DNA from: Candidatus Coatesbacteria bacterium
GTDB taxonomy: Bacteria > JAFGND01
Direction of reading: 5' to 3'
Assembly (NCBI GenBank): GCA_016927185.1
Contig: JAFGND010000070.1
Location: 1 to 33,491 of the forward strand
Length of the DNA stretch: 33,491 nucleotides
Shown here: positions 147 through 31,247 of the stretch, piece by piece
Position numbering within the stretch: the stretch's first letter is position 1
How the letters are laid out: each line of letters opens with the position of its first letter
Program-made: the position numbers and the translations under genes
The notes under the pieces: model-generated
What the model saw: only the letters and a program-made list of their open reading frames with translations
What the model was told of the DNA's origin: nothing
Databases searched by the model: none

Positions 147-560
147 ATGACAAAAATTTTCTTGATACTAGTTATAACAGCGGCTTTAATCTGGGCAGAA
201 GGAGAAGATGATATAGGATTCAGCATCAGTGCAGGTAACACAATGCAATCAACAACAGCTGGTGAAACAGTTCATTTCAAAATTACCCTTGTAAACAGCT
301 CTTCTTCAGGAGCTATTTACACTCTCAAGACAATCCCTGTAAAATCTCCTTCAGGATGGTCAACAATGATTTGTCAGGGAGGCGTATGCAGTCCTGTTAG
401 TGAAATGCAGACTACTGAAGTTCCTGCAGGAGGAAGCCTTGCACTGGAGTTTTCAGTAATAACTGAGGAAGCAGGCAAAGGAATTTACAGATTCCAGGTT
501 TTCCCCCAGAGTAGTCCTGCAAAAACAAGGACATATAAATTCACGGTGACTGCTGAATGA
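147..560 (+). CDS. Secreted hypothetical protein, probable Ig-like beta-sandwich
   Basis: AAGGAGG SD, signal peptide, beta-rich pattern (GETVHFKITLVN, W, CxxxxC). ATGA overlap with the next gene. Confidence 0.75.
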   Translation: MTKIFLILVITAALIWAEGEDDIGFSISAGNTMQSTTAGETVHFKITLVNSSSSGAIYTLKTIPVKSPSGWSTMICQGGVCSPVSEMQTTEVPAGGSLALEFSVITEEAGKGIYRFQVFPQSSPAKTRTYKFTVTAE

Positions 561-1960
561 AAAAAATTCAATTCTTGATAATAATCCTTTTACTGACAAC
601 AGATTATCTCTTTACTGATCAAGGAGAAGTTTCCTTGAAAAAACTTGGAAAAACTGACAGCCCCAACAGGACAGTATATGGTTATCATCCTTACTGGGTA
701 ACTTCTTCCTGTGTTGACAATTACAGATGGGAACTGCTTACGCATATTGCTTGCTTTTCTGTCGAAGCGACAAGTACTGGAACTTTCAGCAACAAGCATA
801 GCTGGCCATCAGGTTCATTGTGGCAAAAGATAATAACCAATGCTCATAATAATAATGTAAAAGTGACTCTTGTCTGCACGCTTTTCGACTCAGCAGCACT
901 CCGCACTCTCCTTTCTTCATCAACTTACAGAAACAGGCTTATACAAAATCTGCTCACAGAAGTGCAGAATGGCAATGCAGATGGAGTAAATATTGATTTT
1001 GAGGAAGTCCCTGGAGATCAGCAGACAAATCTGACAACTTTCATGACTGATCTTAACAATACCTTCAAGAATGCACGAGCTGATTATCACGTTACTCTTT
1101 GCGGACCTTCAGTAGACTGGAGAAATGCCTTTCATTATGAAAACCTAATGAAAAATACTGATGGGATAATGATTATGTGCTATGGATACTATTATGGTGG
1201 TTCATCAACAGCTGGACCAGTGAGTCTTCTTCAAAAAGGTGATGGCTGGAGTACATATAATGTAAAATGGACAATAAATGACTATCTGTATTATGGCAAG
1301 AACCAGAATGATAAAATGATTCTTGGTATTCCATATTATGGAATTGACTGGCCTACAAATACTGATGCTGCTCACAGCTCCACAAGGGGAACAGGAACCT
1401 CTGTAACATACAAGAATGCTGTCGTGAATGCGAATACCTATGGAAGGAAATGGCAGGAAGATGTAAAGAATCCATGGTACTCATATAGCAGCAGCGGTTA
1501 TCATCAATGCTGGTATGACGATGATGAAAGTCTAGGCTACAAATATGATGAAGTAATAGCTAATAATCTTCAAGGTATTGGTATCTGGGCTTTAGGTTAT
1601 GATGATGGCAGAAGTGAACTCTGGGATAAAATAGAGGAGTATTTCAGCCAGTTGACTGGGTTCACTACAAGCAAGAAACGATTACCCAATGATACTGGCT
1701 TGCTAAAAGCTTTTCCCAATCCTGTTCTTGATAAGCTTTGTTTCCAGTTTTCAGCAGATAAGTCAGGTAATTACAAGCTTCTTTTATATGACATCAATGG
1801 CAGGCTGATAGAAACCTTTGTTGATAAGAATATTTCGAAAGGAACTTATCACGGCAAGATTAATATTTCAGGAATAAGAGGGATAAAAAAAGGTGTCTAC
1901 TATCTCAGATTGCAGGGAATTAGTAATGATTGTATCAAACTGGTTTACCTGGGTAGATAA
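557..1960 (+). CDS. Glycoside hydrolase family 18 (chitinase/chitobiase-like) with T9SS type A-like C-terminal sorting domain
   Basis: Signal peptide; DGVNIDFE catalytic motif; LGIPYYG, WYDD and GIGIWALGYD motifs; C-terminal FPNP...YDINGR...GVYY...KL. Confidence 0.9.
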   Translation: MKKIQFLIIILLLTTDYLFTDQGEVSLKKLGKTDSPNRTVYGYHPYWVTSSCVDNYRWELLTHIACFSVEATSTGTFSNKHSWPSGSLWQKIITNAHNNNVKVTLVCTLFDSAALRTLLSSSTYRNRLIQNLLTEVQNGNADGVNIDFEEVPGDQQTNLTTFMTDLNNTFKNARADYHVTLCGPSVDWRNAFHYENLMKNTDGIMIMCYGYYYGGSSTAGPVSLLQKGDGWSTYNVKWTINDYLYYGKNQNDKMILGIPYYGIDWPTNTDAAHSSTRGTGTSVTYKNAVVNANTYGRKWQEDVKNPWYSYSSSGYHQCWYDDDESLGYKYDEVIANNLQGIGIWALGYDDGRSELWDKIEEYFSQLTGFTTSKKRLPNDTGLLKAFPNPVLDKLCFQFSADKSGNYKLLLYDINGRLIETFVDKNISKGTYHGKINISGIRGIKKGVYYLRLQGISNDCIKLVYLGR

Positions 1961-2872: not shown

Positions 2873-3984
2873 TGAGGATTGGAATTGCAACAGTAAGTGA
2901 GGCAAAAAGAATGGGTGGAATAGCTACTTATATAAGGGAATTATTGCCTCATTTTGCGCTACAAGCAACACAACATGAATTCTTTGTGTTCAGAAATACT
3001 GAATATGCTTTAAAGATACCAAAAGCAGATAACATGCATGATATAACATTCAAATTCAATATTAATAGCCCAAGTATAAGGAGACTTTACGAGCAGCTTG
3101 TTTTTCCATTTCTCATCAAAAAGTACAACCTTGATCTTCTACATAGCATTGATAATGTTATCCCTTTTTTATATTCAGGCAATCAAGTAGTAACAATCCA
3201 TGATGTAACACTTTTTAATACTCCAGACAGATTCACGAAATTAAAGACTCTTTATTTGAAGAATTTCGTAAGACGTACTGTTAAAAAGGTAGATCACATA
3301 ATAACCATAAGCAGCTCAACGAAGTCTGATCTTATAAAATATACTAATGCAGACGAAAGCAAGATTACAGTGATTTACGAAAGTGCAAATCATAATCCTC
3401 CATGCTCAGCAACAAATCTTCAAACAATTTATAAAGTAAAGAAACCATATTTCATTTTCATTGGTACGCTGGAACCTGGAAAAAACCTTATGCGAATGAT
3501 GAGAGCTTTTGCTCAAGCCAGGAAAGAAGCCAATCTACCTCATAAATTTGTTATTGTTGGTGGAACTGGCTGGAAATTTGAAGGAATATTAGAAGAAGCT
3601 AAATCTCTTAACCTTTGTGATGACATTATTTTCACTAAATATGTTCCACTTGAGGATCTAACATTGCTCTTGAAAGAATCTTTCGCTTTACTTTTTGCAT
3701 CATTATACGAAGGTTTTGGTCTCCCAATGGTTGAGGCATTCGAAGCTGGTATCCCGGTTCTAACCTCTAATATTTCAGCTATGCCTGAAGTTGCCGGGAA
3801 TGCAGCATTATTAGTTGATCCTTATGATGTAAATGCCATAAAAGAAGGAATAATAAGACTTGCCAGGGATGCGGATTTGAGAAAATCATTGATTGCCAGG
3901 GGAAAAGAAAGAAGAAAAATGTTTTCCTGGTCACAATGTGCATTTGAAACAATAAAAGTCTATGAATCCTTTATCAACATGTAA
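2872..3984 (+). CDS. Glycosyltransferase family 4 (mannosyltransferase-like)
   Basis: VTIHD, GTLEPGKN, SLYEGFGLPMVEA and PEVAG motifs. Confidence 0.92.
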   Translation: MRIGIATVSEAKRMGGIATYIRELLPHFALQATQHEFFVFRNTEYALKIPKADNMHDITFKFNINSPSIRRLYEQLVFPFLIKKYNLDLLHSIDNVIPFLYSGNQVVTIHDVTLFNTPDRFTKLKTLYLKNFVRRTVKKVDHIITISSSTKSDLIKYTNADESKITVIYESANHNPPCSATNLQTIYKVKKPYFIFIGTLEPGKNLMRMMRAFAQARKEANLPHKFVIVGGTGWKFEGILEEAKSLNLCDDIIFTKYVPLEDLTLLLKESFALLFASLYEGFGLPMVEAFEAGIPVLTSNISAMPEVAGNAALLVDPYDVNAIKEGIIRLARDADLRKSLIARGKERRKMFSWSQCAFETIKVYESFINM

Positions 3985-6335
3985 AACAATATACCAGCAG
4001 CAATATAGAAAAGAGCTCCAAGCCAGAAAGAATAACCAATTCCATATGAAACTGAGATACATATTGCCATTACTGATGCAATAACTGACATAGCTCCGTT
4101 TATCCCCCAGAACCATGCAAGCGGTAAATTTCCATGTTGCGTACTTGCCAGTTTGAATCCCATTGGAAAAGGCATTCCCATAAAAAAACCAATAATGAAC
4201 AGCATAGAGAAAGCAACTGGTATCCTTACAAGGTTTCTGGCAGATGAAAAACTGCTTATAATATGCGGTGTAAGGTAACCGAATAATATTACTAGAAGAA
4301 CAAGGAAAATCCAGAAAAAAGCTGTTTTCCTCATCCCGTATCGTTCAGAAACTATCCCTGATATATAGCTTCCTATACCACTTGAAACAAGCAGTGAGAA
4401 TAAAACTACAGTAAGGCTGTAAACAGGATGACCAAGAAAGATGACAAGTCTCTGCATCTGCGAAATTTCAATTGACATATAAGCAAGCCCTATACTTGCA
4501 AAGTAAATCATGTATTTGTATGATCCTGAAGGAATCATCTTGTCCCATTTCCAGGGAATGATTATGCAAAGAAGACCAAGTAGGATTACTGTAAACAACA
4601 AACTTACAAGCGTGAAAACAGGATGGCTTGGATCAAGTTTGAATACATCTGAAAGTCTGTAGAATAAGAAAAAGAACGGATTATCATCAGTATTTGGGGA
4701 TATATCATATGGATACTTCTTTATTTCTTCCTGAAGGTTTCCTGTTTCAATAATTCGTTGCAATATCCTGTCTTTAGAAGGTTCACCTGGAATAAGCATT
4801 ATCTCGAAGTTAAGTTCATTGCATATGCTTCTTATTTCCCTTAGTTCACCAGCATCAAAAGGTGATCTTGCTACCATTATGGTTCCCATGCCATTCAATA
4901 AGCCATAAGCCTGGTTGTTTCTTATAAGTATGATATGGTCAGATGCCTTTTCAGTAATATTCTTCAAACTTGATCTGGCAAGTGTCACTAGCCTGTATAT
5001 CTCGTAAGGCTTGTCATCAAGATACCATCTTGAAACAGTCAATATCCCTTTTTCATTAAGCCGGGAAATAAACAAACTCCAGGCTTCAACAGTATAGAGG
5101 CTGTTCTCAGTAAGAACATATGCCCCAGCTGCTGTCGCTGCCCAGGTGTCAATCTGGGAAATCTGTATCAAATCATAGCTATCCTTGCCTCTTGCAATGA
5201 AACTTCTTGCCTCATCATCAATCATTGTAACCTTATGATGTTTATAGAGATTACCAGAATATCCAGCGAAAGGATATTTCAGAAGTTCAATTATCTTTCC
5301 ATTGAATTCAAGACCGGTAACATGCTTCTGGTTGAAGGCTATTGCACTTAATAAGTCCCTGCCTCCGCCTATTCCAACCACAAGAACATCAGCATTTTTC
5401 CTTATGTAATGAGCTATATTAGTAATGTCATATTTAAGAAATTCTATCTCTTCATTCTTACCATTCCATTTTGTAATGACTGTTCCTGCAAGATTGTCTA
5501 TGAACAGCATTATCTGTGGAATCTTGTACTCCCTTGGAGTTTTTGATGACATTCCCCATCCAACTGGATTCACAGGCTTTTCAGGTTCACCATAAACAAG
5601 GAGTCTGGCAAAAGGAGTCCATTTTTCATATACCGGTTTCGGTTCTATACCATTCTTTGACCATACTATTGATATAAGCGGATAATTGTATCTGGCTGAT
5701 ACAAGATGCAGAAAGACCAGAAGAAATACTGATATCAGAAGATTCCTGCTTCTCTTTTTATACTTTGTATCTCCATCTTCTGCGAATATCCAGGATGCAA
5801 TTGCAGCAAGAGCTGATAGTATGGCAATTGCAGCTGGAGCATCAAGATAACTCAACACTGGTATGACAATAAGACATGCACTTGCTGAGCCAGCCAAATC
5901 AATAGCATACAGCATTCCTGCTTTCACTGGATTTGATGTCAATATAAGACATATAATCATGCCTGAAAAAGTGAATACTGTAGCTATAATCATGTAACGC
6001 AAAAAACCTGAGAATATTGCTGTCAGAGAGATGTGTAAAGCAAGAGGAATACTCAGTATTACGAAGAGGCTCAATATTATTGCCCATGCATAATAATACG
6101 AAATCCTTGAAAGATGGGATCTGCTATTCTGGAACCATTCTTTTTTTTTGTATACTATCAATGCCCCTATAGATAAACCAAAAAGTGCAAGTGAAATAGA
6201 GACAAATGCGAAATGATACCACATCGTTGCGGAAAATAGTCTTGTCAGAATCAACTCATGAAGAAGACTTGTAAGGGTGATTACAAAAAAACCAGCAATA
6301 ACCCTAAAGGAAACTTGTTCTTTGAATCCTGTTAT
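3960..6335 (-). CDS. Polytopic membrane protein with central spermidine-synthase-like SAM-dependent transferase domain
   Basis: N- and C-terminal TM bundles (ELILTRLFS, YAIDLAGSA, FLGHP, WGING); SAM motif VLVVGIGGGRD; PNTDDNPFF. The ORF track starts at TTG 6254, but the first TM helix lies upstream in frame, so I propose an ATA start at 6335. Confidence 0.85.
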   Translation of the reverse strand: MTGFKEQVSFRVIAGFFVITLTSLLHELILTRLFSATMWYHFAFVSISLALFGLSIGALIVYKKKEWFQNSRSHLSRISYYYAWAIILSLFVILSIPLALHISLTAIFSGFLRYMIIATVFTFSGMIICLILTSNPVKAGMLYAIDLAGSASACLIVIPVLSYLDAPAAIAILSALAAIASWIFAEDGDTKYKKRSRNLLISVFLLVFLHLVSARYNYPLISIVWSKNGIEPKPVYEKWTPFARLLVYGEPEKPVNPVGWGMSSKTPREYKIPQIMLFIDNLAGTVITKWNGKNEEIEFLKYDITNIAHYIRKNADVLVVGIGGGRDLLSAIAFNQKHVTGLEFNGKIIELLKYPFAGYSGNLYKHHKVTMIDDEARSFIARGKDSYDLIQISQIDTWAATAAGAYVLTENSLYTVEAWSLFISRLNEKGILTVSRWYLDDKPYEIYRLVTLARSSLKNITEKASDHIILIRNNQAYGLLNGMGTIMVARSPFDAGELREIRSICNELNFEIMLIPGEPSKDRILQRIIETGNLQEEIKKYPYDISPNTDDNPFFFLFYRLSDVFKLDPSHPVFTLVSLLFTVILLGLLCIIIPWKWDKMIPSGSYKYMIYFASIGLAYMSIEISQMQRLVIFLGHPVYSLTVVLFSLLVSSGIGSYISGIVSERYGMRKTAFFWIFLVLLVILFGYLTPHIISSFSSARNLVRIPVAFSMLFIIGFFMGMPFPMGFKLASTQHGNLPLAWFWGINGAMSVIASVMAICISVSYGIGYSFWLGALFYIAAGILFYMLIKDS

Positions 6336-7822
6336 ATCTGCAATCCTTCTGTTTTTACCATCATAAGAACCTGATAGTAAAGAAACAAAACCCTTGATAT
6401 ACCTGTTTCCATCAAAATAAGCTTGTTTTGTTCCTTATCAAACTTCTCGTTAATGACAGGTCCTTCAGTTTTCCTTTTTGCCTTCTTCTTGACAGCTTTT
6501 TCAGGAGCCGGGATAGTATTTATAAACTGGGCAACAAGTTTTCCCTGTTCAATTATCTTGTCAGTGGCAGAATGATTCTCTTTCATGTTATTATATTCTG
6601 CCCTGAGTGAGATTATTTTCTTTTCTGCAGTGTCTTTGTCCTTGACTGTCTTTTTCTTTGTTTTTCTTACTGCCTTCTTCCCCTTTTTTTCAGTACTATC
6701 TTTGCTGTCGTCCGTTGCAGAGCTTTCATCCCCGGTAATTTTATACTTCTTTTCTAGTTCAGCCAGATATTTATCTGTTTTCTCAAGCATTTCTTCAATG
6801 AATGCTTCTGAATCATATTGCTTTCGTTCTTCAGCTGCTTTCTTTTCTTCAAGTATCTTCTTCTCTGCTTTCTCAATGGAATCCTGTTTAGCTATCCTTG
6901 CATCATCTTCTTTTTTAGATGTTATCTTGCTCATATTAAGAAAAAACGGCATCAAGAATATGCTTGCAATAACAAGCAATAATCCAATTCCTCCTCCAAT
7001 CAGTATTCCGTGTATGAATTTAAGCCCCTTTTGGGGATGTTCATATTCTTCTTCGAAATCTTCTTCGTTTTCCATTTTTCCTTCCCCCTCCTGAGTTTCA
7101 CTTGATGAAAATGGAATGATTGCCAAACCGTAATTAAGTGATTCACTTTCACTCATGGAACTTGAAATCATATTTTTCAAGTCAGTACTGATATCCCTGG
7201 AAACCTTGCTTGCAGATAATGTCTTGAAAAGGTCTTCTTCCTTGATCTTATCAAAAATCTGTTTTGATACAAGATATATTGTATCGCCTTCTTCATGATT
7301 GAATCTACCTATTTTCGGGTCTAAATCTGCATTCACTCCCAGAAGCATACTTTCTGTATTATCAGACTGAGGTTCCAGGGATCCAACATTTGGTGACAAT
7401 ACTGTTGTCCTGTTTCCCCTTTTCAATATAAATTTATTACCACCAGAATTGAAGTAAAAGCATGTTGATTTATATATCAGAAGTAATCCCATGCCGAAAT
7501 GACTCTTTGGTGTAGATCTTTGATTAAGCTGGAACAAGCTTGAGTTTACTTGTGATATTATTCTTGTTATTGTATCTGGTATAGTAAGCGGAATCAATGG
7601 AGATTGATAAAGATTATCTGATATTCTTTCAAGAAATGTCTTTGCAATGCCCAGGTTCTTGTGATTTATATGGAATGGATCAAGCATCAGCAACAATACT
7701 CCTTCCCTTTCAAGGGATGAAGGTTCTATTGGTTGCCTCAGCTTGAAAATATTTGATGAAATATCTTCATCAGAACCACAATATGCAACTTTCAGGATAT
7801 CCATATTTGCAAGAATACTCAT
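6332..7822 (-). CDS. Bitopic membrane protein: degenerate PP2C/PPM-like N-terminal domain, TM helix, charged C-terminal region
   Basis: Order and spacing of GVLLLMLD, FNSGGNKFILKRG, LLG...GDTIYLVSKQIFD and LNYGLAII match PPM motifs; hydrophobic segment at about aa 270-295. Confidence 0.65.
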   Translation of the reverse strand: MSILANMDILKVAYCGSDEDISSNIFKLRQPIEPSSLEREGVLLLMLDPFHINHKNLGIAKTFLERISDNLYQSPLIPLTIPDTITRIISQVNSSLFQLNQRSTPKSHFGMGLLLIYKSTCFYFNSGGNKFILKRGNRTTVLSPNVGSLEPQSDNTESMLLGVNADLDPKIGRFNHEEGDTIYLVSKQIFDKIKEEDLFKTLSASKVSRDISTDLKNMISSSMSESESLNYGLAIIPFSSSETQEGEGKMENEEDFEEEYEHPQKGLKFIHGILIGGGIGLLLVIASIFLMPFFLNMSKITSKKEDDARIAKQDSIEKAEKKILEEKKAAEERKQYDSEAFIEEMLEKTDKYLAELEKKYKITGDESSATDDSKDSTEKKGKKAVRKTKKKTVKDKDTAEKKIISLRAEYNNMKENHSATDKIIEQGKLVAQFINTIPAPEKAVKKKAKRKTEGPVINEKFDKEQNKLILMETGISRVLFLYYQVLMMVKTEGLQI

Positions 7823-7833
7823 GATTTTTTATC

Positions 7834-8742
7834 CTACTTCTTTTTTTCTGCAGCATCTGCAGGCTTAGGCAGGTTTGTAGGCATTACCAATGGCATTGAT
7901 TTCATATCTTCAGGTAGCAGTATAAGCGTGCTGTTATTTGAACCCAGAAGTGACTTCAGCATTTCAATCTTGTACCACTGGATATAGTTTGGTGTCAGTC
8001 CCTGCGAAATTATGAGGTTATATTCCTTTATACCTTTTGCCTCCACTACTTTTCTCTCCGCTTCAAGTCTTTCCTTGTCAAGCACAAACTGCATTTTCTT
8101 TGCATGCTGCTCTGCTTCCTGCTTCTCGTTTATTGCATTCACAAGTTTTGAAGGCAGATTAACATTCCTTAAAAGTATTCTCTCTATTATAACTCCCTTT
8201 CCCTCAACAAGCTTTGCTGCCTGCAGATTTATTATTGTGTTAACTGCCTCTCTTTTCGAAGAATATAAATCTTCAGCAGTATGCTGTACTACAACATCTC
8301 TTATTACTGTTCTGAGGAGTGGTCTTATAACTTTCTGATCATAATCCTCACCAATTTCATTAAAAACCTTAGGACCTTCTGATGGAATAAGTTTATACCA
8401 TGCAGTGAGATCAAGTGAAACAGTCAAGCCTTCCTTTGTCAATGCAGTTATTGCATCATCTCCCTCTTTCTTTCCTTCTCTTGGTGCTATCGACATTGTA
8501 TATTCCTGAAGTCTTGTTGTCATTATATAAGTTCTTTCCAATAGAGGCAGTTTGAAATTGAGACCGGGCTGCATATATCTTGGCATGACTTTCCCCAGTC
8601 GGGTGACTACTGCAATATTCCCTGCTGGTACAATCTTGTAAGTGTCGCAACCTACGATTATTACAATCAAGGCAATAATTATGAACCAGAAAGCATATTT
8701 TGCTTTTCCTCTTGAAGTTTCAATTATGTGAACATCAGCCAT
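7834..8742 (-). CDS. SPFH/band 7 (prohibitin family) membrane protein
   Basis: N-terminal TM, PGLNFKLP, LTKEGL, AINEKQEAEQ and EAERKVVEAKG. Start refined to ATG 8742 (AAGGAG SD); ORF track start is 8778. Confidence 0.92.
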   Translation of the reverse strand: MADVHIIETSRGKAKYAFWFIIIALIVIIVGCDTYKIVPAGNIAVVTRLGKVMPRYMQPGLNFKLPLLERTYIMTTRLQEYTMSIAPREGKKEGDDAITALTKEGLTVSLDLTAWYKLIPSEGPKVFNEIGEDYDQKVIRPLLRTVIRDVVVQHTAEDLYSSKREAVNTIINLQAAKLVEGKGVIIERILLRNVNLPSKLVNAINEKQEAEQHAKKMQFVLDKERLEAERKVVEAKGIKEYNLIISQGLTPNYIQWYKIEMLKSLLGSNNSTLILLPEDMKSMPLVMPTNLPKPADAAEKKK

Positions 8743-8924
8743 AATTTCTCCTTTTGCATTATTTTCCTGCCAAAGCATTCAATCAAAAAGCTATTGTCAA
8801 GGAAAAAGCCTTATGATTGATTTATACTTTTTGTAACAATATTCTACTTGGAAATAATTAAAAATCAGCTTATTAAGCAGTACTAAGATTAAAGAGGAGT
8901 GAATATAATCCTCCTCTTCTCGAT

Positions 8925-9974
8925 TTATCTCAAATCAACTCTTTTCGGTATGAATATCCTTCTTAAAGTATTCCTGTTTGTGCTAATATCTCTTGATGCT
9001 GTTTTTGCACTGCTTGAAGAAGGTTTCTTTATGCTGTTTAAATTACTGGCATACATCTTCTTTATTCCTCCCCAGGTTTCTTTCTTTATACCTTCTTCAT
9101 GAAAAGGCACATAAATATAAACTGCCTGAGGAGAGAATCCTTCCTTATTAATTCCTGCTGCTATATAAACTTGCTTCCTTGTGGTCTGATTGCTTGTGAA
9201 ATTATCATAGTATGATAAACAGCGAATATTAAGGTAAGTTTCATCACCATTGAACCATTTTCCTTCCCCAAGTGTATCAACTGCGCATAAAACGAGTAAA
9301 TGACCTTCGTTTTTCTGGTCATATCTTCTAGTCCATGTTCTAGGATCATATGCAACAATCATTGAACTATCTAACTGAGTTGCTCCTTCATTAAAACAGG
9401 TAACCGCCCAGACAATACAATTCAAATCATAATCATAACCAATACCACGTAACCAGTAAGAATATGAAATGTCTGAAGGTGCATTAAAGTTGCCTTTATA
9501 TTGCATCAAAATTGGATCTACTTCACAAAGTTTGAAGTTATCCCTGTCAACAACCAGAACTCTGTAATCACCTTTATAAATCATGTAAAGACAACCGGTA
9601 TAATAACCATTCTCATCAAGCTGCACATAATCTTTATTAGACATATCTTCAATGCCAAGAAAATACAATCTCTTTGAAGTATTATCAGCTACTGCGAGAG
9701 TATCACCACTGAAACTTATGCTTATTGCATAAGGATCAATACCAGATGGTAACCATGATTTCTCCCATGTTCCTGTATTGACATCACCTCTATAAATGTA
9801 ACGTGTAACATAATTTACTATATATATTTTGTCTTTTGAAACAGTCAGTCCTGAAATATTCTGTTCTACATTATATCCTTCTGGAAGTGGATAAGATGCG
9901 ATCCTGTCTCCCATGTCTGCCAAGGATATTGAAGCAGAGAAGAAAAGAAGCAAGAATACTAAAATTCTATTCAT
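8925..9974 (-). CDS. Secreted hypothetical protein (possible beta-propeller), paralog A, with TWGGIKKMY motif and basic tail
   Basis: Signal peptide; GGAGG SD before ATG 9974 (ORF track start 9986); full-length similarity to 10008..11081. Confidence 0.8.
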   Translation of the reverse strand: MNRILVFLLLFFSASISLADMGDRIASYPLPEGYNVEQNISGLTVSKDKIYIVNYVTRYIYRGDVNTGTWEKSWLPSGIDPYAISISFSGDTLAVADNTSKRLYFLGIEDMSNKDYVQLDENGYYTGCLYMIYKGDYRVLVVDRDNFKLCEVDPILMQYKGNFNAPSDISYSYWLRGIGYDYDLNCIVWAVTCFNEGATQLDSSMIVAYDPRTWTRRYDQKNEGHLLVLCAVDTLGEGKWFNGDETYLNIRCLSYYDNFTSNQTTRKQVYIAAGINKEGFSPQAVYIYVPFHEEGIKKETWGGIKKMYASNLNSIKKPSSSSAKTASRDISTNRNTLRRIFIPKRVDLR

Positions 9975-10007
9975 TTTTACCTCCATTCAAATATAATTTT
10001 ACCAGAA

Positions 10008-11081
10008 TTATTTAACTGTTGCTCTTTTCGGTATGAATATTCTTCTTAGAGTATTCCTGTTTGCGCTTATGTCTCTTGATGCTGTTTTTGCACTACCTGA
10101 AGAAGGTTTCCTTATACAGCTTACACTGCTTGCATACATCTTCTTAATTCCTCCCCAGGTTGTCGTTTTAAGGTTCGTTCCATCATAATAGAATGAAGCA
10201 TACATCCAGACTGCTTGGGGAGAATATCCTTGAGTTTCCATTCCAGCACCTAGATAAACCTTCTTGTTACCTGGATAATCATTTAAATAGCCTATGCCCC
10301 TGATGTTTACATAAGTTTCATATCCATTATACCATCTTCCCTGACCTTGTGTATCATATGCACAAGTTGGACAGAAATGACCATTCCGGTAAAGATCAGT
10401 TCTTCTTGTCCATGTGTTTGGATCATAAGCTGCAATCATTGAACTGTCTATTCTGATTAATGCTTCATCAAAACAGGTGATTGACCATAGAATACATCCT
10501 ATCTCAAAATCATAACTCAAGCAACGCATCCAGTATGTCTTTGATATCTCTGAAGGTGCATTAAACTTGCCTTTATATTGCATCAAAATTGGATCCACTT
10601 CATAAAGTTTGAAGTTATCTCTGTCAACAACCATTACACGATAATTTCCATTATACATTATATATTGCACACCTGTAAGATATGGCGGATTTGTTTCCTG
10701 GACAACACTTTCGTCCAGCAATACTGAACCCAGGATATCAAGGTTATCACCACTAATATCAAGGAAGAACAAACGTTTGCCAGCATTACCAACCAATGCT
10801 AAAGTATCAGTACTATTACTGGCACTCATTCCATAAGGATAAGAATCTTGGGTTAAAAACCATGATTTCTCCCAAGCTCCAGTATAGGCATTACCTCTGT
10901 ATATATAGTTTGTCAAAGAATTTGCAATATATATTCTTCCTCTCGAGATCGCAAGGCCTGTAATCTGCTGCTCAATATTATATCCTCCTGGCAATGGATA
11001 CGAAGCAATCCTGTCTCCCGTTACAGTTGCAGTTACTGAAGTAACCAGAATAAAAAGCATAAACAAAACAATCCTGTTCAT
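10008..11081 (-). CDS. Secreted hypothetical protein (possible beta-propeller), paralog B, with TWGGIKKMY motif and basic tail
   Basis: Signal peptide and AGGAGG SD; shares GDRIASYPLP, VVDRDNFKL.EVDPILMQYKG and the C-terminal tail with paralog A. Confidence 0.8.
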   Translation of the reverse strand: MNRIVLFMLFILVTSVTATVTGDRIASYPLPGGYNIEQQITGLAISRGRIYIANSLTNYIYRGNAYTGAWEKSWFLTQDSYPYGMSASNSTDTLALVGNAGKRLFFLDISGDNLDILGSVLLDESVVQETNPPYLTGVQYIMYNGNYRVMVVDRDNFKLYEVDPILMQYKGKFNAPSEISKTYWMRCLSYDFEIGCILWSITCFDEALIRIDSSMIAAYDPNTWTRRTDLYRNGHFCPTCAYDTQGQGRWYNGYETYVNIRGIGYLNDYPGNKKVYLGAGMETQGYSPQAVWMYASFYYDGTNLKTTTWGGIKKMYASSVSCIRKPSSGSAKTASRDISANRNTLRRIFIPKRATVK

Positions 11082-11271
11082 TTTTGCCTCCTTTTTCTAA
11101 AACAAACTCATTTGCTGAAATTATAGTTTTTATACCTTAACAAGGTTAATAAAGTAACTATTTTTCAACTAAAAAAGTCAAGATAAAAAGAATGGTCAGA
11201 TTCTTCTTTACAAAAAACTCTGTCTCAGGTGCATGCTAAGTGCTTTTTTATCACCTGATGAAAGGATTTAT

Positions 11272-13614
11272 ATGAGATTCTTGATACTTTTTATACTGTT
11301 TTCTGCGGGTTTGGCTGGTGCTTCAAATGACGGATTCGACGATCTCTTCACAGCACAATCAGACTATCCTTTCTCGCAGTTCCTTAATCCTGCAGCACTT
11401 GCAGCTCATGACGGTTTCGATATATATTCGTCGATGAGCTATGTAGAGGAAAACAGCAATATACCGAAATTCACGGATGTTTCTGCAAAATTCGGGAATT
11501 TCTTTGGAATGACATACAGGCACAGGGCAGACAACGGCAATATCTCATCAATGAACAATCTTGGACTGACTGCTGCAATAAGATTTCACAAGGCTTTCAT
11601 GATAGGCACCACCTATGACAGATATTATTTCAAAGACGATGAAACAATCAATTACGGTACATTGAATGCAGGTTTCATAATGAGACCACACAGATTCGCA
11701 AGTCTCGGCTTCGTTGCTAATGAACTATGGTCTGATAATGACTATCCCAAAAGCTACTCAGCAGGAATAGGCATCAGACCAGGTACTGAAATGATATCAT
11801 TGTATGCGGATTTAAGATGGGAAAAGGGGGAAAAGATATCAAAAGGTGATGTTTATTACGGGGCTTTCATTGAACCTCTTGATGGAATAACCATTGGAGC
11901 AAGTTACAAGGACAAGAATAAATACGGTTTCAATATTGGATTCAATATGAGATACTTCGGTATTGGAACAAGGACACGCTCTGTAGGCGATATGAAAACA
12001 ATAAATCCCTATATATTCTACTCCTCCTCCATAAGACCAACACTCGTGAATGAGACAAAATATATTTCAGGCATGAAAATCCAGGGAAAAATTGATAATT
12101 CAGGTGCAAGTTCATTCCTCTTTGGCTCCAATCCATCAATTAGAGACTATATAGATGCAATACATACAGCAAGAAGGGACGCAACAGTAAAAGCGATTTA
12201 TGTGAAAGTTGGAAATCTGGATACATCATGGGCACTGATAGAGGAACTGAGAACTGCTATAAGTGAGTTCAGATCAACTGGCAGAAAGGTGCTTGTATAC
12301 ATGGAATCAGGAGGCATGAAGGAATATTATCTTGCTACTGCATCAGACAAGATAGTGATGTGTCCTGAAGGCTCATTGATGCTTGAAGGAATAAGCATGA
12401 GAGGGCTGTTCCTGAAAGGATTGATGGACAGACTGAAAATAACTGTTCAGTATACAAAGCATGGCAAGTACAAATCTGCAGTAGAGATGCTTGCAAACGA
12501 AAAATGGTCTGATCCCGCAAGAAAACAGATGGAGGAATTCCTTGATGATATTGATAATGAGATAACTACGGAAATGGCTAAAAAAGCGAAACTTACAAAG
12601 GAACAGTTTACAGAAAAAGTTTATAAAAAAGTCATCCTGCATTCAGAAGAAGCAAAAATGCTTGGCTTGATTGATGCAGTGATGTACGAAAAAGAGGCAA
12701 AAAGATTTGCAAATACGCTGATAGCAAGAAAAGGTGACAAGATAGATGATCTATCATACTTCACCTATTATGACAAGAGATGGGATGAAAAACCTGCAAT
12801 AGTTGTTCTGAATGCTGAAGGAAGCATAGCCAGGGGAGAAAATGGCAACAGCCTGCTGTCTGGAAAGACAATGGGATCTGATGGCATGATAAAGCTAATA
12901 AGAGCTGCATCAAGGATACCTAATACAAAGGGAATAGTTTTCAGGGTTGATTCGGGCGGTGGGGATGGACTTGCTTCTGATCTTATCTGGCATGAACTTA
13001 AGGAGCTGAGAAACAAGAAAAAAAGCCTTGTTGTATCAATGGGAAATATGGCTGCATCAGGTGGATACTACATATCCATTCCTGCAGAGAGAATTTTTGC
13101 TGACAAAACCACATTAACAGGATCAATAGGCGTTTTCTGGATGAATTTTTCAGTAAAGGATCTTGCAAACTGGCTTGGGGTAAAAACAGAGATAGTGAGA
13201 AGAGCTCCTCATGCAGGTAATGCAAGCATTTATGAAAAACTTTCTGCAGAAGAACTTAAATTATTGCAGGACTTTGTTGACAATGATTACCAGAGGTTTG
13301 TGAACAAGGTTGCAATGGACAGGAAACTCTCTCCATCATATATAGACAGTGTAGGTCAGGGGAGAATCTGGTCAGGTCCTGCAGGAAAGAAACTGGGGCT
13401 TGTTGATGAGATTGGAGGACTGGACCAAGCAATAAGATATATTGCAAACCAGAATAACCTGAAAGAAGGCGAATACAGGATCATCTATATACCAAAGCAC
13501 AAGAGTTTTCTCAAGCAGATAATGGATCTTCCAATGCAACTCAGGAAAAGCGTGGAGATCCCGTTTAATCTGGAAAACCAGATATTGTATTTGTGCCCTT
13601 TCAGTTTGGATTGA
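11272..13614 (+). CDS. sppA: Signal peptide peptidase SppA (S49, two-domain type) fused to an N-terminal FadL/PorV-like beta-barrel
   Basis: YYLATA, KYKSA, RVDSGGG, AASGGYY, TGSIGV, QGRIWSG and GLVDEIGG motifs. The N-terminal ~260 aa have NPAAL and amphipathic strands. Start refined to ATG 11272 (ORF track start 11233). Confidence 0.88.
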   Translation: MRFLILFILFSAGLAGASNDGFDDLFTAQSDYPFSQFLNPAALAAHDGFDIYSSMSYVEENSNIPKFTDVSAKFGNFFGMTYRHRADNGNISSMNNLGLTAAIRFHKAFMIGTTYDRYYFKDDETINYGTLNAGFIMRPHRFASLGFVANELWSDNDYPKSYSAGIGIRPGTEMISLYADLRWEKGEKISKGDVYYGAFIEPLDGITIGASYKDKNKYGFNIGFNMRYFGIGTRTRSVGDMKTINPYIFYSSSIRPTLVNETKYISGMKIQGKIDNSGASSFLFGSNPSIRDYIDAIHTARRDATVKAIYVKVGNLDTSWALIEELRTAISEFRSTGRKVLVYMESGGMKEYYLATASDKIVMCPEGSLMLEGISMRGLFLKGLMDRLKITVQYTKHGKYKSAVEMLANEKWSDPARKQMEEFLDDIDNEITTEMAKKAKLTKEQFTEKVYKKVILHSEEAKMLGLIDAVMYEKEAKRFANTLIARKGDKIDDLSYFTYYDKRWDEKPAIVVLNAEGSIARGENGNSLLSGKTMGSDGMIKLIRAASRIPNTKGIVFRVDSGGGDGLASDLIWHELKELRNKKKSLVVSMGNMAASGGYYISIPAERIFADKTTLTGSIGVFWMNFSVKDLANWLGVKTEIVRRAPHAGNASIYEKLSAEELKLLQDFVDNDYQRFVNKVAMDRKLSPSYIDSVGQGRIWSGPAGKKLGLVDEIGGLDQAIRYIANQNNLKEGEYRIIYIPKHKSFLKQIMDLPMQLRKSVEIPFNLENQILYLCPFSLD

Positions 13615-21310: not shown

Positions 21311-21694
21311 TTATTTCTTTGGTGAATATACTGGTGTTATTTTTTTCCCGCCTCTTGAAGGGCTTGGAACTGGAGTTATATGGGTACGTGGAGTAGTGGA
21401 ACCTTTTTCTCTGATAATATAGGTTCTTGTTGCTGGTAATTTTGCATTCTTCTTCAGTTCCTCTACATCCTTGATAAGATTCTCTACATCTTTTACCAGA
21501 TCATCAACAATCATCTGCAAACTGTCAACTTTTCCAGCTTTCTGAGCCATTGTCTGGCTTGATGTTTCTATTGTTGCAACCTTTGTAGACAAGTCTTCCA
21601 ATGCCTTCTTTGTAGCTGGATCAGTTCCTCCTATACAGCTTATTAGTGAAGCAGCTACCAAAACGGATAGTATTGCTACCAATACTCTTTTCAT
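21311..21694 (-). CDS. Lipoprotein with coiled coil and Pro/basic tail
   Basis: AAGGAGG SD; lipobox LISC; heptads LVKDVENLIKDVEEL. Confidence 0.85.
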   Translation of the reverse strand: MKRVLVAILSVLVAASLISCIGGTDPATKKALEDLSTKVATIETSSQTMAQKAGKVDSLQMIVDDLVKDVENLIKDVEELKKNAKLPATRTYIIREKGSTTPRTHITPVPSPSRGGKKITPVYSPKK

Positions 21695-29192: not shown

Positions 29193-29325
29193 ATCCTTTA
29201 ATATATTATCAATTAAGATATTAGTTAATTATATATTATATGTAACTTCAAAAGAATCAAGAAAACCCTTGACAAAACTAGTCTTATACAATTTCTGTAT
29301 CTGCGAAAATCAAGAAAGGAGAAGT

Positions 29326-29988
29326 ATGTTCAAGAATGTTCTGGTTTTGTTTATTGCTATAGCTTTTGTATTGAGTTGTGGTGCCCCGGGACCCAAGGAT
29401 ACTATAGACAAGTTCTTTTCCTTGGCAAAGGAAAAGAAATTGGGTGATGTACAGAAACTTATTTATCAGGAAGATTATCAAATATATACTCAAGTGAAAG
29501 CTAAACTTGATGAACTTAAGGAGCTTGATCCAGGACAGGCAAAAACCGAAAGCGATAAATACGATATTTATGGAAAAATGTTGAAGTCTACAAAATATAA
29601 AATAGCTGAGGAGCCTAAAGAAAAAGATTCAGAATCTACTGTAAAAATAATATTATATCAGAATGATTCTGAAGAGACAATAGATTTGAAGTTGATAAAA
29701 AAAGAGAACAATTGGTTTATAAGACTTGATTCTGACGGAACAATGAAAGATGGAATCAGTCAGCTGGACAGAATAATAACAAATCTAAAGGAACAGAAAG
29801 AAGCAACAACCGCAAATGATTCAACCTCAAAATCAGATACTGAACTGAAAGATACTGAAGATTCTGCAAAAAATAAAGACAACGTCGATAAAAATGTTGA
29901 CAAAAAAGACAGTAAGTCAAAAACTAAAATCAAAAAAGGGAAAACTGCAAAAAAGAAGGCAGTGAAAGCTAAAAAGAAGAAAACTTAA
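29326..29988 (+). CDS. Lipoprotein (DUF4878/NTF2-like) with Lys-rich tail
   Basis: AAGGAG SD, lipobox VLSC, PKDTIDKFF and LIKKENNWFI. Start refined from 29269. Confidence 0.8.
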   Translation: MFKNVLVLFIAIAFVLSCGAPGPKDTIDKFFSLAKEKKLGDVQKLIYQEDYQIYTQVKAKLDELKELDPGQAKTESDKYDIYGKMLKSTKYKIAEEPKEKDSESTVKIILYQNDSEETIDLKLIKKENNWFIRLDSDGTMKDGISQLDRIITNLKEQKEATTANDSTSKSDTELKDTEDSAKNKDNVDKNVDKKDSKSKTKIKKGKTAKKKAVKAKKKKT

Positions 29989-30044
29989 TTAGAAGCTGCT
30001 TTCAAAGCAATAGTTAATGCTATTTGATCTTTAAGGGAGATATT

Positions 30045-31247
30045 TTGAAGACTCCACTTATACTTTGTTTTGTGCTTATCACTATAGGTTTTCTTAACTC
30101 CTCTCCTCCTTCCCTGGAACATGTAAGAAATGAGATAAAAGCAAGGAATCTCGAATGGTTTGCATCAGAAACATATAATTCAAAACTTCCATATGGTCTT
30201 GCAGGATTGAACTTGATGCATCTAAAAACCGAAAATCCTGGGGATGCCAATGTCAATTTCCTGTCTCATAATAATGATAAAAAACCAGTTTCTTTTTCTT
30301 GGAGAGATTATAAGGGCAGAGACTGGGTTACAAGTATCAAGAATCAAGGACAATGCGGTTCTTGCTGGGCATTTGCTGCATTAGCTGCCTGGGAAGTATC
30401 AATCAGAGTAGCTTATTCAAACCCTGATGAACAAATTGATTTAAGTGAGCAATTTCTTGTTTCTGATTGTTTCAAAGATGGAGATTGTAATGGTTGCTGG
30501 CCAAGTGCATTATATAAATTCCTGAAGAGCGAAGGCTGCATTGATGAAGCATGCTGGGTATACAGAGGAAGGAATACCCCATGTTACGGTCAATGCGAAG
30601 AATGGAATAGCAAGAAGCTTCTTCTCCGGGATTATAAATCAATCCTGAATAATAATGAAGCAGTGAAACAAGCAATAACAGTATCCCCTGTATCAACTAT
30701 AATGCAAGTATATGAGGATTTCTATTATTACTACAAATCAGGGATTTACAAGTATTCAATTGGAGAATCAATGGGACTTCATGCGATTACTATTATTGGA
30801 TATAATGATAACAACAATAATGGGTATTGGTACTGCAAGAATAGCTGGGGAGAGAATTGGGGAGAAGATGGTTTTTTCAAGATAGCATATAATCAGGCAA
30901 GAATTCCGTATCCAAATCAGACCCATCTTCCAATAGCTTTCTTCCAGGGTTTTGGAAATCCTGCAAAGACTGCAAAAGAAGTACCAAGAAAAAAAGAACT
31001 TCTTGTTACCCCAAATCCCTTTCTTGACAAAATTGACATCTGGTTTTATATTATGGAGAAAGGAAATATAGAAATCTCCATTTTTGACATTAATGGAAGA
31101 AAAATAAGAACTATTATCAAGGGCTATCATCAACCCGGAAGTTATTATTATAAGCAGAATAACATGAAAGAAAAACAGGGAATTTACTATATTGCCTTGA
31201 TCGGGAAAACTTATAAGATTATTACAAAACTTGTGAAAATAAACTAA
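30045..31247 (+). CDS. Papain-family (C1A) cysteine peptidase with T9SS-like C-terminal domain
   Basis: NQGQCGSCWAF, GLHAI and KNSWG; C-terminal PNPF...FDINGR...GIYY...KLVK. TTG 30045 follows a GGGAGA SD (ORF track start 30024). Confidence 0.92.
   Translation: MKTPLILCFVLITIGFLNSSPPSLEHVRNEIKARNLEWFASETYNSKLPYGLAGLNLMHLKTENPGDANVNFLSHNNDKKPVSFSWRDYKGRDWVTSIKNQGQCGSCWAFAALAAWEVSIRVAYSNPDEQIDLSEQFLVSDCFKDGDCNGCWPSALYKFLKSEGCIDEACWVYRGRNTPCYGQCEEWNSKKLLLRDYKSILNNNEAVKQAITVSPVSTIMQVYEDFYYYYKSGIYKYSIGESMGLHAITIIGYNDNNNNGYWYCKNSWGENWGEDGFFKIAYNQARIPYPNQTHLPIAFFQGFGNPAKTAKEVPRKKELLVTPNPFLDKIDIWFYIMEKGNIEISIFDINGRKIRTIIKGYHQPGSYYYKQNNMKEKQGIYYIALIGKTYKIITKLVKIN

Follow-up and report, generated by a model that had tools for sequence, protein, structure and literature searches.

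Tandem, putatively secreted paralogs with a TWGGIKKMY motif and a cationic tail: a possible extended form of a C-terminal tag in uncultured bacterial lineages

Among the C-terminal tags of exported proteins, LPXTG, PEP-CTERM and the T9SS CTD each opened the way to finding an envelope machinery dedicated to it, and each sets the surface proteome for entire phyla. In LPXTG, PEP-CTERM and GlyGly-CTERM, the signals of sortase, exosortase and rhombosortase, a transmembrane helix lies between the motif and a basic cluster. Highly basic C-terminal appendages are also described in Fibrobacter succinogenes, where, according to the passages of PMC6851124 that concern them, basic terminal domains (BTDs) of 43-46 residues with a pI above 9 are found in FSU_2361 and FSU_2362, signal-peptide-bearing cellulases. 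The same passages report that BTD/Fpm-1 was proposed as a T9SS signal and that most were re-interpreted as T9SS CTDs, and in the relevant parts of PMC6851124 and PMC3079729 the BTD is considered as an anchor to the cell surface whose mechanism is unknown.

We analysed a stretch of 33,491 nucleotides (hereafter the window) from a Coatesbacteria-like organism. The initial annotation had described tandem paralogs in which TWGGIKKMY is followed by exactly 41 Ser/Lys/Arg-rich residues, and both open reading frames, which lie on the minus strand, were found to have this arrangement:

10008..11081, minus strand: paralog B, 357 aa as in the ORF list, with a signal-peptide-like N-terminus, a beta-propeller body, TWGGIKKMY and a 41-aa basic tail
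10134..10160, minus strand: TWGGIKKMY of B
10011..10133, minus strand: cationic tail of B, 41 aa, net charge +9, ending IFIPKRATVK
8925..9974, minus strand: paralog A, 349 aa, from the likelier start, the ATG at 9974
8925..9986, minus strand: longer form of paralog A as first annotated, 353 aa from the first ATG, which adds MEVK
9051..9077, minus strand: TWGGIKKMY of A; the core TWGGIKK is invariant in the family
8928..9050, minus strand: cationic tail of A, 41 aa, net charge +8, ending IFIPKRVDLR
8891..8919, minus strand: stable, terminator-like hairpin just past the stop of A, followed by UUUAAUCUU

The shorter form of paralog A is the likelier one, since a GGAGG (9980-9984) lies 5 nt upstream of the ATG at 9974 and the database copy of the protein, P0001 (349 aa), begins at that same ATG. 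A and B are clearly related (BLASTP, 198/361 identities, 55%, E 5e-146), and the pattern WG.[IVL]K is absent from every other frame of the window. The hairpin has a predicted RNA folding energy of -14.8 kcal/mol (z -3.6), with none of 200 shuffled sequences equally stable, and it was left unflagged by a consensus terminator scan; B and A form a two-gene unit with this terminator-like end at 8891..8919. On the plus strand, antisense ORFs run across both tails (8899..9102 and 10033..10188), which we regard as K/R/S-rich codons read in reverse.

A search among 5.8 billion proteins returned a family of only nine clusters, whose members are 33-55% identical and in which TWGGIKK, invariant in the 8 aligned members and present in 9/9, is the sole long invariant block. 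WGGIK ends 38-45 aa short of the C-terminus in 9/9 members, all of which combine an acidic body (net charge -5 to -16) with a tail of 35-42 aa and a net charge of +6 to +10; the tails of A and B each contain 10 Lys or Arg and 11 Ser or Thr. The longest hydrophobic run in the tail is about 3-4 residues (IFI), and AF2 models the tail without strands at a pLDDT of about 25. Its end follows the pattern h-x-h-P-[KR]-[RM]-x-x-h-[RK], and the Pro of h-x-h-P-[KR]-[RM] is kept in all 8 aligned members and is found in P0009 too. The sequence of the tail is otherwise divergent, motif and tail together being 26-49% identical across the family. A profile of motif plus tail, corresponding to the 55-aa signal of the initial annotation, matched 3 of 1.84 billion representatives, all from the family, and in the 5.8-billion set, where it covered proteins 99-2000 aa long, it gave 9 matches at E<=10 from 3404 candidates, again all of them family members, so that as a unit this signal is private to the family. 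Searching genome contigs with the whole family gave 39 pattern matches and 0 relatives. Within the window, two lipoprotein-like ORFs likewise end in strongly cationic tails that are free of the motif, and the last 41 residues have a net charge of at least +8 in 4 of 29 ORFs.

A hydrophobic N-terminal segment is present in all nine family members (maximum over 10-mers on the Kyte-Doolittle scale 2.8-3.6, a heuristic used in place of a dedicated predictor) and the AF2 family model places a helix at residues 2-15, and it is on these two grounds that we call the family secreted. The same model has confident beta-sheets across residues ~30-220 and a pLDDT below 50 in its C-terminal third (residues 221-349). 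When compared with the PDB by Foldseek, its top matches were all beta-propellers (best E 4.9e-08), at TM scores of 0.33-0.39 and with a query that is partly of low confidence, and residues 17-300 of the Atlas model align to NHL/SGL/YncE six-bladed propellers at a TM of 0.57. Since this alignment reaches residue ~300, the propeller fold would stop just before the motif (residues 300-308). On these models the body is a predicted six-bladed beta-propeller, and the propellers of A and B probably act as binding modules. In Pfam and NCBIfam neither paralog matched any family at E<=1 except for one 13-bit match to HemY, which is at chance level and was rejected as an identity for the paralogs, and the family profile had 0 matches among PDB sequences at E<=10.

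The tail had also been described as more conserved than most of the body, and in numbers this is so, with 30/41 identities between A and B in the tail against 159/295 for everything ahead of the motif; columns 151-190 of the body alignment equal or exceed the tail (0.9 in 20-residue windows). For the tail, dN is 0.150, dS 0.502 and dN/dS 0.30, a ratio drawn from the small sample of 41 codons, and for the body the values are 0.340, 1.087 and 0.31, so for this pair we reject a tail under tighter purifying selection than the body. Since tail dN and tail dS each come to roughly half of the body value, the extra similarity seems to stem from a more recent common ancestry at the 3' end, through gene conversion for instance. 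The similarity of the two tails would then be largely an effect of low dS, and it does not prove a special constraint on their sequence.

The core of the motif has a much wider distribution. An exact-motif scan of genomes gave at least 116 loci; of the 116 listed, 34 have at least 100 in-frame codons upstream of the motif, and in 10 of these the motif lies at most 5 residues from the stop. These 10 loci encode 7 different proteins, and 5 architectures are represented: LamG, LTD/Cys-rich, beta-helix, CBM20 and dockerin. A protein census with the motif gave 237 matches at E<=10, 120 of which were listed in detail (5 of the family and 115 others) and which, taken singly, are weak (E 1e-4 to 1.9). 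Among the matches listed, W-G-x-I-K ends 0-10 aa from the C-terminus in 115/115 non-family proteins, with a mode of 4, and the carriers further include Kelch, CBM9_1, F5/8-C, CHRD, cohesin, 3-keto-disaccharide-hydrolase-like and unassigned bodies. In the same listed set, the N-terminus is hydrophobic in 87 of 95 full-length carriers, two carriers terminate exactly at the conserved Lys, and the few with organism names are from Poribacteria, Eisenbacteria or Krumholzibacteria. The Kelch propeller P0028 bears the tag as a terminal appendage. The initial annotation had put [ST]WGx[IV]K at the very C-termini of secreted proteins from candidate phyla including Poribacteria and Eisenbacteria, a statement borne out by the near-terminal position in all 115 listed non-family proteins. 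These carriers also mean that the motif extends beyond the A/B family, and structure prediction gave no picture of a motif buried in a core fold: it is unstructured beside LamG and of low confidence in the family model.

The Trp and Lys of the tag, at i and i+4, are invariant in two tag subtypes (43/43 and 66/66) and in the family (9/9), and type-2 tags have exactly 4 residues after the motif in 38/43. In an alignment of 42 LamG sequences, the tag has 7/7 of the invariant columns, and in the AF2 model of a LamG carrier the tag residues 241-260 have a pLDDT of 58-59 and no secondary structure, next to a domain above 80. Tag codons differ synonymously between loci, which argues for conservation at the peptide level; since degenerate codon positions vary among loci, we rejected a DNA repeat at gene ends. 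No Pfam or NCBIfam model covers the tag, and literature searches for the motif, or for sorting-signal terms together with the phylum names, returned no description of it (matches to 'TTWG' concerned an unrelated abbreviation and were set aside). Internal copies of the exact heptamer are found in unrelated proteins as well: an Acidobacteria enzyme family (9 loci), an FtsA-like protein and small lipoprotein-like ORFs of Sulfurospirillum/Campylobacterales.

The family and the Eisenbacteria-type tag have in common T-T ahead of the Trp and a hydrophobic followed by an aromatic residue at +6/+7. A tag profile built free of the family and run against 154 sequences (the nine family proteins and 145 frames of the window, each 60 aa or longer) matched only family members, at 17-23 bits. 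We infer that the family motif is homologous to the C-terminal tag. The reading that we favour, with somewhat less than even confidence, is that the tag is a modular C-terminal sorting or anchoring signal, to which this family adds a second, polycationic anchor. A and B would be exported by Sec as acidic six-bladed propellers, each directly followed by a variant of the widespread modular T-T-W-G-G-I-K tag. As an unstructured linear motif, the tag could be read after Sec export by an envelope component that would deliver the protein to the cell surface or hold it there, and its invariant Trp and Lys may be the contact or attachment residues. The disordered extension of 35-42 aa could serve as an electrostatic anchor to anionic envelope material, rather than as a throw-away pro-piece. 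The data show the anatomy, the fold class, the confinement of motif plus tail to the family and the modular, near-terminal distribution of the core. The function proposed for the tag derives from its distribution, as our searches found no partner, machinery or processing, and both this function and the role of the tail are put forward from sequence. To this extent the interpretation in the initial annotation is partly supported, while a sorting or processing signal, an export system that reads it and a cleaved 41-aa extension are proposals. Were the tag a sorting signal, one simple profile would be enough to list the surface proteins that these phyla export, and phylogenetic profiling against it could expose the machinery. 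The tag is attached to lectin-like, carbohydrate-binding and adhesion modules from uncultured lineages, Poribacteria included, and is short enough for domain libraries to miss. As the only long-extension form seen, the family lends itself naturally to testing whether a free C-terminus is required.

A broader proposal, which is possible but to our mind rather doubtful, takes TTWGGIK as the mark of a pathway so far undescribed, for export after Sec or for attachment to the surface, that Poribacteria, Eisenbacteria and Krumholzibacteria would have in common with the Coatesbacteria-like organism analysed here. A short unstructured signal with neither a transmembrane helix nor a folded CTD would, on this proposal, be unreadable by sortase-like, T9SS and T1SS machineries. 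The family would be the extended form, with a tail that either is cleaved to activate the signal, possibly by a neighbouring peptidase with a PorV-like barrel, or tethers the propeller to the envelope. This peptidase is encoded next to the pair:

11233..13614, plus strand: peptidase of family S49 (SppA) whose N-terminal part is a PorV/PorQ/PorP-like barrel, transcribed divergently from A and B

Its product matches Peptidase_S49 (E 1.1e-67) and SppA_67K (321 bits), and its residues ~30-285 match PorV/PorQ/PorP-SprF-type barrel clusters at a TM of 0.69-0.80 by query, making it a possible candidate for a tail-processing enzyme.

Taken by itself, the suggestion of the initial annotation that the 41-aa tail is a cleavable extension appears to us unlikely. 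On this view the tag would function solely close to a free C-terminus, as in the other phyla, and the tail would be a pro-piece that masks it until an envelope protease such as the S49 neighbour removes the tail. The view would account for the family running on precisely where the tags stop (..IKKMY-AS.. against ..IK-x-h-Y, R-stop), all 115 listed non-family carriers ending 0-10 aa past the motif and 38/43 type-2 tags exactly 4 residues after it, and it is in keeping with a serine peptidase with an outer-membrane-barrel-like N-terminus only 151 bp off, on the opposite strand. However, the distance of 0-10 from motif to end among the tags means that a precisely placed carboxylate is unnecessary, the length, the charge and the terminal P-[KR]-[RM] of the tail are kept across members of 33-55% identity, which exceeds what a disposable spacer needs, and the adjacency to the peptidase is known from one locus only.

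We give a similarly low probability to the view that TWGGIKK closes the propeller as its last strand or cap and is unrelated to the tags, which it would resemble by coincidence, the tail being no more than a basic, disordered stretch able to bind anionic polymers (LPS, EPS or nucleic acid). The motif lies directly against the fold, whose alignment runs to about residue 300, and the low pLDDT of residues 221-349 leaves room for a closing-strand role. At position -4 the family has Lys, unlike the Glu (43/43) or Leu (63/66) of the two tag subtypes. The family-free tag profile scores the family at just 17-23 bits and over the core alone, which corresponds to E 12-800 at the 5.8-billion database scale. 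As the family's own motif was the query that brought the tags to light, scores of this size mean that homology of the 8-11-residue core could be coincidence, and the view also draws on the heptamer occurring elsewhere by chance or in other roles and on the cationic tails of other exported window proteins that are free of the motif. Against it, the motif is the only long block kept unchanged at 33-55% family identity, the T-T prefix and the +6/+7 hydrophobic-aromatic pair recur in the tags, the Kelch propeller P0028 has the tag as a terminal appendage, and AF2 shows no strand at the motif (a low-confidence helix at 304-309).

A covalent role is very improbable, whether the Lys is attached to peptidoglycan or glycolipid or is cross-linked to the Trp four residues away. 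The C-terminal Lys of Braun's lipoprotein (Lpp) is linked by L,D-transpeptidases, and Trp-Lys cross-linked peptides are known; the invariant W/K spacing in 43/43, 66/66 and 9/9 sequences and the two listed carriers ending exactly at the Lys are compatible with such chemistry. Still, the Lys seldom stands at the very C-terminus, the carriers, as modules for carbohydrate binding or adhesion, would be of more use outside the cell than fixed to peptidoglycan, and no transpeptidase or radical-SAM gene adjoins the A/B pair. Least probable, and scarcely to be expected, is that the basic tail represents, in minimal or degenerate form, a C-terminal signal for T9SS in the manner of the Fibrobacter succinogenes basic terminal domains: T9SS substrates are present in the organism (Pfam finds Por_Secre_tail on 3 window proteins, one GH18 protein and two C1 peptidases), their CTDs are basic too (last-41 net charge +3 to +7) and a signal role was proposed for BTD/Fpm-1 (in the part of PMC6851124 on F. 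succinogenes), yet neither paralog matches Por_Secre_tail (PF18962) or TIGR04183 at E<=1 while the same Pfam library detects those 3 neighbours, the tail is half as long as a CTD and predicted to be disordered, and the tag is also found under the name Poribacteria.

With the modular sorting or anchoring signal as the preferred reading, the family can be set against the described systems. The T9SS type A CTD (Por_Secre_tail, PF18962/TIGR04183) is likewise a C-terminal, modular and rather basic element on Sec-exported proteins of diverse function, but it is a folded beta-sandwich of ~70-100 aa with a library model, whereas here a linear motif of 15-20 aa is joined to a disordered 41-aa tail. The tripartite sortase-type signals resemble the tag as short C-terminal motifs on many unrelated exported proteins within certain lineages, and resemble the family in the basic stretch at the very end; their hydrophobic helix, however, has no counterpart in the family tail, the tags end 0-10 aa past the motif, and no NCBIfam model matched the tail or the tag. 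Type I secretion uses substrates that lack an N-terminal signal peptide, and all 9 family members are hydrophobic at the N-terminus by the same heuristic; an outer-membrane beta-signal has a terminal aromatic residue closing the final amphipathic strand of a barrel, and the family ends in R, K, I or H on a propeller body. Compared by description only, the Fibrobacter BTD is, like the family tail (9/9 members), a highly basic C-terminal appendage of secreted proteins, as defined in the relevant passages of PMC6851124, and the passages on BTDs in that paper and in PMC3079729 mention no TWGGIK-like motif. The tail profile, with no match outside the family in 1.84 billion representatives, argues against close homology to BTDs. 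The NHL/SGL/YncE six-bladed propellers have the same predicted fold as the body of A and B, but the family lies outside their sequence families, the Pfam NHL, SGL and YNCE models being unmatched at E<=1. From the TTWGGIK tags of Poribacteria, Eisenbacteria and Krumholzibacteria, the family differs at position -4 (Lys in place of Glu or Leu) and in that the tags stop at most 10 aa after the motif, whereas the family runs on for 35-42 cationic residues (0/9 within that limit), which makes the nine clusters the only form seen with a long extension. With these tags it shares the T-T-W-G-G-I-K core, the site right after a folded domain, the signal-peptide-like N-terminus and the hydrophobic-aromatic pair of type 2 at +6/+7.

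Paralogs A and B lie in tandem on the reverse strand and are 55% identical (198/361 residues, E 5e-146), and both carry TWGGIKKMY followed by exactly 41 Ser/Lys/Arg-rich residues, just as the initial annotation had read them, motif coordinates included:

8925..9986 (-), paralog A as an ORF
9051-9077 (-), TWGGIKKMY of A
10008..11081 (-), paralog B
10134-10160 (-), TWGGIKKMY of B

The ATG at 9974 is more likely to be the start of A than 9986, since GGAGG lies 5 nt upstream of it and the database copy has 349 aa, and B-A looks like a two-gene unit, given the 33 nt from the stop of B to the start of A and the stable hairpin 3' of A (-14.8 kcal/mol, z -3.6). The tail had also been described as better conserved than most of the body, and between A and B this holds (30/41 identical residues against 159/295 ahead of the motif). 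For this pair the rates argue against tighter selection on the tail, since dN/dS is the same there as before the motif (0.30 against 0.31) with dS halved (0.50 against 1.09); the extra similarity therefore points to a 3' end that the two genes have shared until more recently, through gene conversion for instance. Antisense ORFs at 8899..9102 (+, 67 aa) and 10033..10188 (+, 51 aa) overlie both tail-coding regions; their products are similar hydrophobic peptides, and they are probably a by-product of Lys, Arg and Ser codons read backwards. The paralogs' strand also has an SPFH/Band-7 gene (7834..8778) and, downstream of it, two further genes: 6332..7822 (-), whose 496-aa product belongs to no family and has a Lys-rich region and a membrane segment in its middle, and 3960..6254 (-), which encodes a membrane protein of 764 aa with multiple passes and a spermidine-synthase-like domain that scores weakly (23.7 bits).

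Eight proteins from 5.8 billion clusters form the family of A and B, with a ninth added by a later search; two bear a Candidatus Coatesbacteria MAG as source name, and none was found in the 185,579-species genome collection. All nine carry K-x-[TED]-T-W-G-G-I-K-K-[MV]-[YF] and then 35-42 residues (38-45 from WGGIK to the C-terminus), with a net charge of +6 to +10 in the tail and -5 to -16 in the body. Outside the A/B pair the tail diverges (26-49% identity to A, motif included). In eight members of nine its last residues are h-x-h-P-[KR]-[RM]-x-x-h-[RK] or nearly so, and the Pro of this ending is invariant in the eight aligned members and present in family member P0009 as well. Searching with motif and tail combined in one profile (A2), as the initial annotation had proposed, did not carry the long signal beyond these nine proteins: the family alone was recovered, both exhaustively among 1.84 billion representatives (3 representatives) and, within the 5.8-billion set, among its longer proteins (9 at E<=10, out of 3404 candidates).

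As to the body, at E<=1 neither A nor B can be assigned to Pfam or NCBIfam, and the family profile has no match to PDB sequences at E<=10. By a hydrophobicity heuristic, every member of the family starts with a hydrophobic N-terminal stretch. An AlphaFold2 model from the eight-sequence family alignment (mean pLDDT 57.6) contains confident beta-sheets at residues about 30-220 and falls below pLDDT 50 over 221-349, and Foldseek against the PDB with this model returned beta-propellers exclusively (best E 4.9e-08). In the model that the ESM Atlas has for this sequence, residues 17-300 align to NHL/SGL/YncE-type six-bladed propellers (TM 0.57), so the propeller is predicted to stop just ahead of the motif (residues 300-308).

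Confinement of the motif to this family would have spoken against a signal, and many unrelated proteins were found to carry it. DNA encoding TWGGIKK occurs at at least 116 loci of the genome collection; among the matches listed, 34 loci have at least 100 in-frame codons upstream, and in 10 of these the motif lies within 5 residues of the stop:

L008; L071 with orthologs L085, L100 and L115; L114: LamG proteins, Poribacteria
L032: LTD/Cys-rich-repeat protein, Eisenbacteria
L047: beta-helix protein, Eisenbacteria
L051: CBM20 protein, Krumholzibacteriia
L044: dockerin protein, labelled Saccharibacteria

In these carriers the tag lies outside every Pfam and NCBIfam match. Its degenerate codon positions differ between loci, so it is the peptide that is conserved, and a DNA element is ruled out. 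Two adjacent genes on a Poribacteria chromosome, L071:3-482 (+) and L071:745-1527 (+), both end in the tag, as KLATTWAAVKRQ and KLAATWGGIKKIR, and carriers can thus cluster; KLATTWAAVKRQ, on the neighbour of the L071 carrier, is a tag variant, and within the core G can be replaced by A and I by V. In the remaining 24 of the 34 long-ORF matches listed, which include an FtsA-like protein and an Acidobacteria enzyme family (9 loci), the motif is internal or more than 5 residues from the stop. In that enzyme family (L010, L012, L020, L041, L046, L050, L073, L103 and relatives) TWGGIKKSGIGRSH is internal, with 90 residues between it and the C-terminus, and the heptamer is in an unrelated, non-terminal role. 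Twelve short lipoprotein-like ORFs of about 45-60 aa (L019, L024, L029, L045, L048, L049, L054, L061, L075, L087, L099, L106), mostly from Sulfurospirillum and Campylobacterales, carry the heptamer directly behind the lipobox Cys (SGCATWGGIKKDAKDGAEWTKEK), an N-terminal and not a C-terminal context.

A protein census with a profile of ten tag segments (A4) yielded 237 proteins at E<=10, and the best 120 of these comprise 5 family members and 115 others. In 115/115 of the latter, W-[GA]-x-[IV]-K is followed by between 0 and 10 residues before the protein ends (residues to the end, with counts: 0, 2; 1, 15; 2, 15; 3, 30; 4, 41; 5, 4; 6, 5; 7, 1; 9, 1; 10, 1), in agreement with the statement in the initial annotation that such a motif occurs at extreme C-termini of secreted proteins in phyla such as Poribacteria and Eisenbacteria. 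Because HMMER local alignment is blind to where a protein ends, the terminal position is a finding, one that holds for proteins with tag-like flanks and not for every occurrence of the heptamer. Two subtypes, with 6 intermediate proteins, appear among the best 120 of 237:

P-x-G-K-L-[AT]-T-T-W-G-G-I-K: 66 proteins, mostly LamG, one Poribacteria name
[TV]-E-x-[ST]-T-W-G-[GA]-I-K-x-[ILM]-[HY]-[RNQK]-stop: 43 proteins, with Eisenbacteria and Krumholzibacteria names

Pfam-confirmed carrier domains are Laminin_G_3, CBM_20, Beta_helix/NosD, Dockerin_1, LTD, Kelch, CBM9_1, F5_F8_type_C, CHRD, Cohesin and 3keto-disac_hyd; several bodies have no Pfam family, and 87/95 full-length carriers among the matches listed have a hydrophobic N-terminus. 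All seven invariant columns of a 42-sequence LamG alignment come from the tag. The AlphaFold2 model of a LamG carrier (pLDDT 87.7) is confident to about residue 240, and residues 241-260 have pLDDT 58-59 and no secondary structure. Burial in the core fold, the other doubt raised initially, is thus not predicted for this carrier, where the tag is modelled outside the domain; in the family the motif region is modelled at pLDDT below 50. The LamG alignment and model suggest that the tag behaves as a short linear motif for partner recognition and not as part of a fold.

We consider it probable that family motif and tags share origin and function. They have the T-T-W-G-G-I-K core in common, both come directly after the fold of an exported protein of binding type, a hydrophobic and then an aromatic residue stand at +6/+7 in the family as in the second subtype, and the motif is invariant although the family is otherwise 33-55% identical. 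Against kinship, position -4 is Lys in the family and Glu (43/43) or Leu (63/66) in the subtypes, the family motif is non-terminal, and it was itself the query that yielded the tags. A family-free tag profile (115 non-family sequences) scores the family at 17-23 bits, over the core only; these are its sole matches among 154 local sequences, and not significant at database-wide scale. That the motif is a structural strand whose likeness to the tags is coincidental is, on balance, unlikely.

The tail is predicted to be disordered (pLDDT about 25), cationic and of low complexity. A net charge of at least +8 in the last 41 residues occurs in 4/29 window ORFs, namely A, B and two lipoprotein-like ORFs without the motif:

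21311..21694 (-), lipoprotein-like ORF, last-41 charge +8
29269..29988 (+), lipoprotein-like ORF, last-41 charge +15

Both have a Cys after a hydrophobic N-terminus and a low-complexity cationic tail. The envelope proteins of this organism thus seem to use cationic tails quite generally, which favours the tail as an electrostatic anchor whose role is independent of the tag. Alternatively, the tail could be a pro-piece whose cleavage exposes the tag, which we regard as doubtful; from adjacency at one locus, a candidate processing enzyme is conceivable:

11233..13614 (+), S49 (SppA-type) peptidase, 793 aa, divergent from B

Its first ~285 residues match no Pfam or NCBIfam model; in structure they are similar to outer-membrane barrels of the PorV/PorQ/PorP-SprF kind (TM 0.69-0.80 by query). 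An SppA-type peptidase joined to an outer-membrane barrel is unusual; the fusion also occurs in Atlas clusters of Cloacimonadota, Ignavibacteriota and Myxococcota.

We tentatively hypothesise, as the best reading, that the acidic propeller would be exported by Sec, that an envelope component would then recognise the unstructured TTWGGIK and deliver or hold the protein at the surface, and that the family-specific tail would contribute electrostatic tethering. The analysis shows how the proteins are built, which fold class they have and where tag and tail occur; we infer every functional step. A covalent reaction involving the invariant Trp and Lys is improbable, and a degenerate T9SS signal slightly more so. 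In the window the T9SS Por_Secre_tail occurs on one GH18 protein and on the first two members of a C1 peptidase tandem of three:

557..1960 (+), GH18 protein, Por_Secre_tail
30024..31247 (+), first papain-family C1 peptidase, Por_Secre_tail
31258..32751 (+), second papain-family C1 peptidase, Por_Secre_tail
32805..33491 (+), third papain-family C1 peptidase, cut by the window end

The organism therefore has type IX secretion substrates, and the canonical C-terminal signal and the motif coexist in one genome.

Of the known C-terminal signals compared, none fits the tag. Unlike the T9SS CTD, it has neither a CTD model match nor a CTD-sized fold; it lacks the transmembrane helix that sortase- and exosortase-type signals contain; and tag and family proteins differ from T1SS substrates by their signal-peptide-like N-termini. 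No description of a TTWGGIK tag was found in the literature covered, which leaves out most subscription journals. Among described features, the tail comes closest to the basic terminal domain that Fibrobacter succinogenes enzymes carry, with a pI above 9 and in some cases 43-46 aa; this domain has been discussed as anchoring to the surface by an unknown mechanism, and a role as T9SS signal was proposed later (PMC6851124, PMC3079729). We place the finding among C-terminal sorting or anchoring tags, and there is a real chance that the pathway behind the TTWGGIK tag is itself new.
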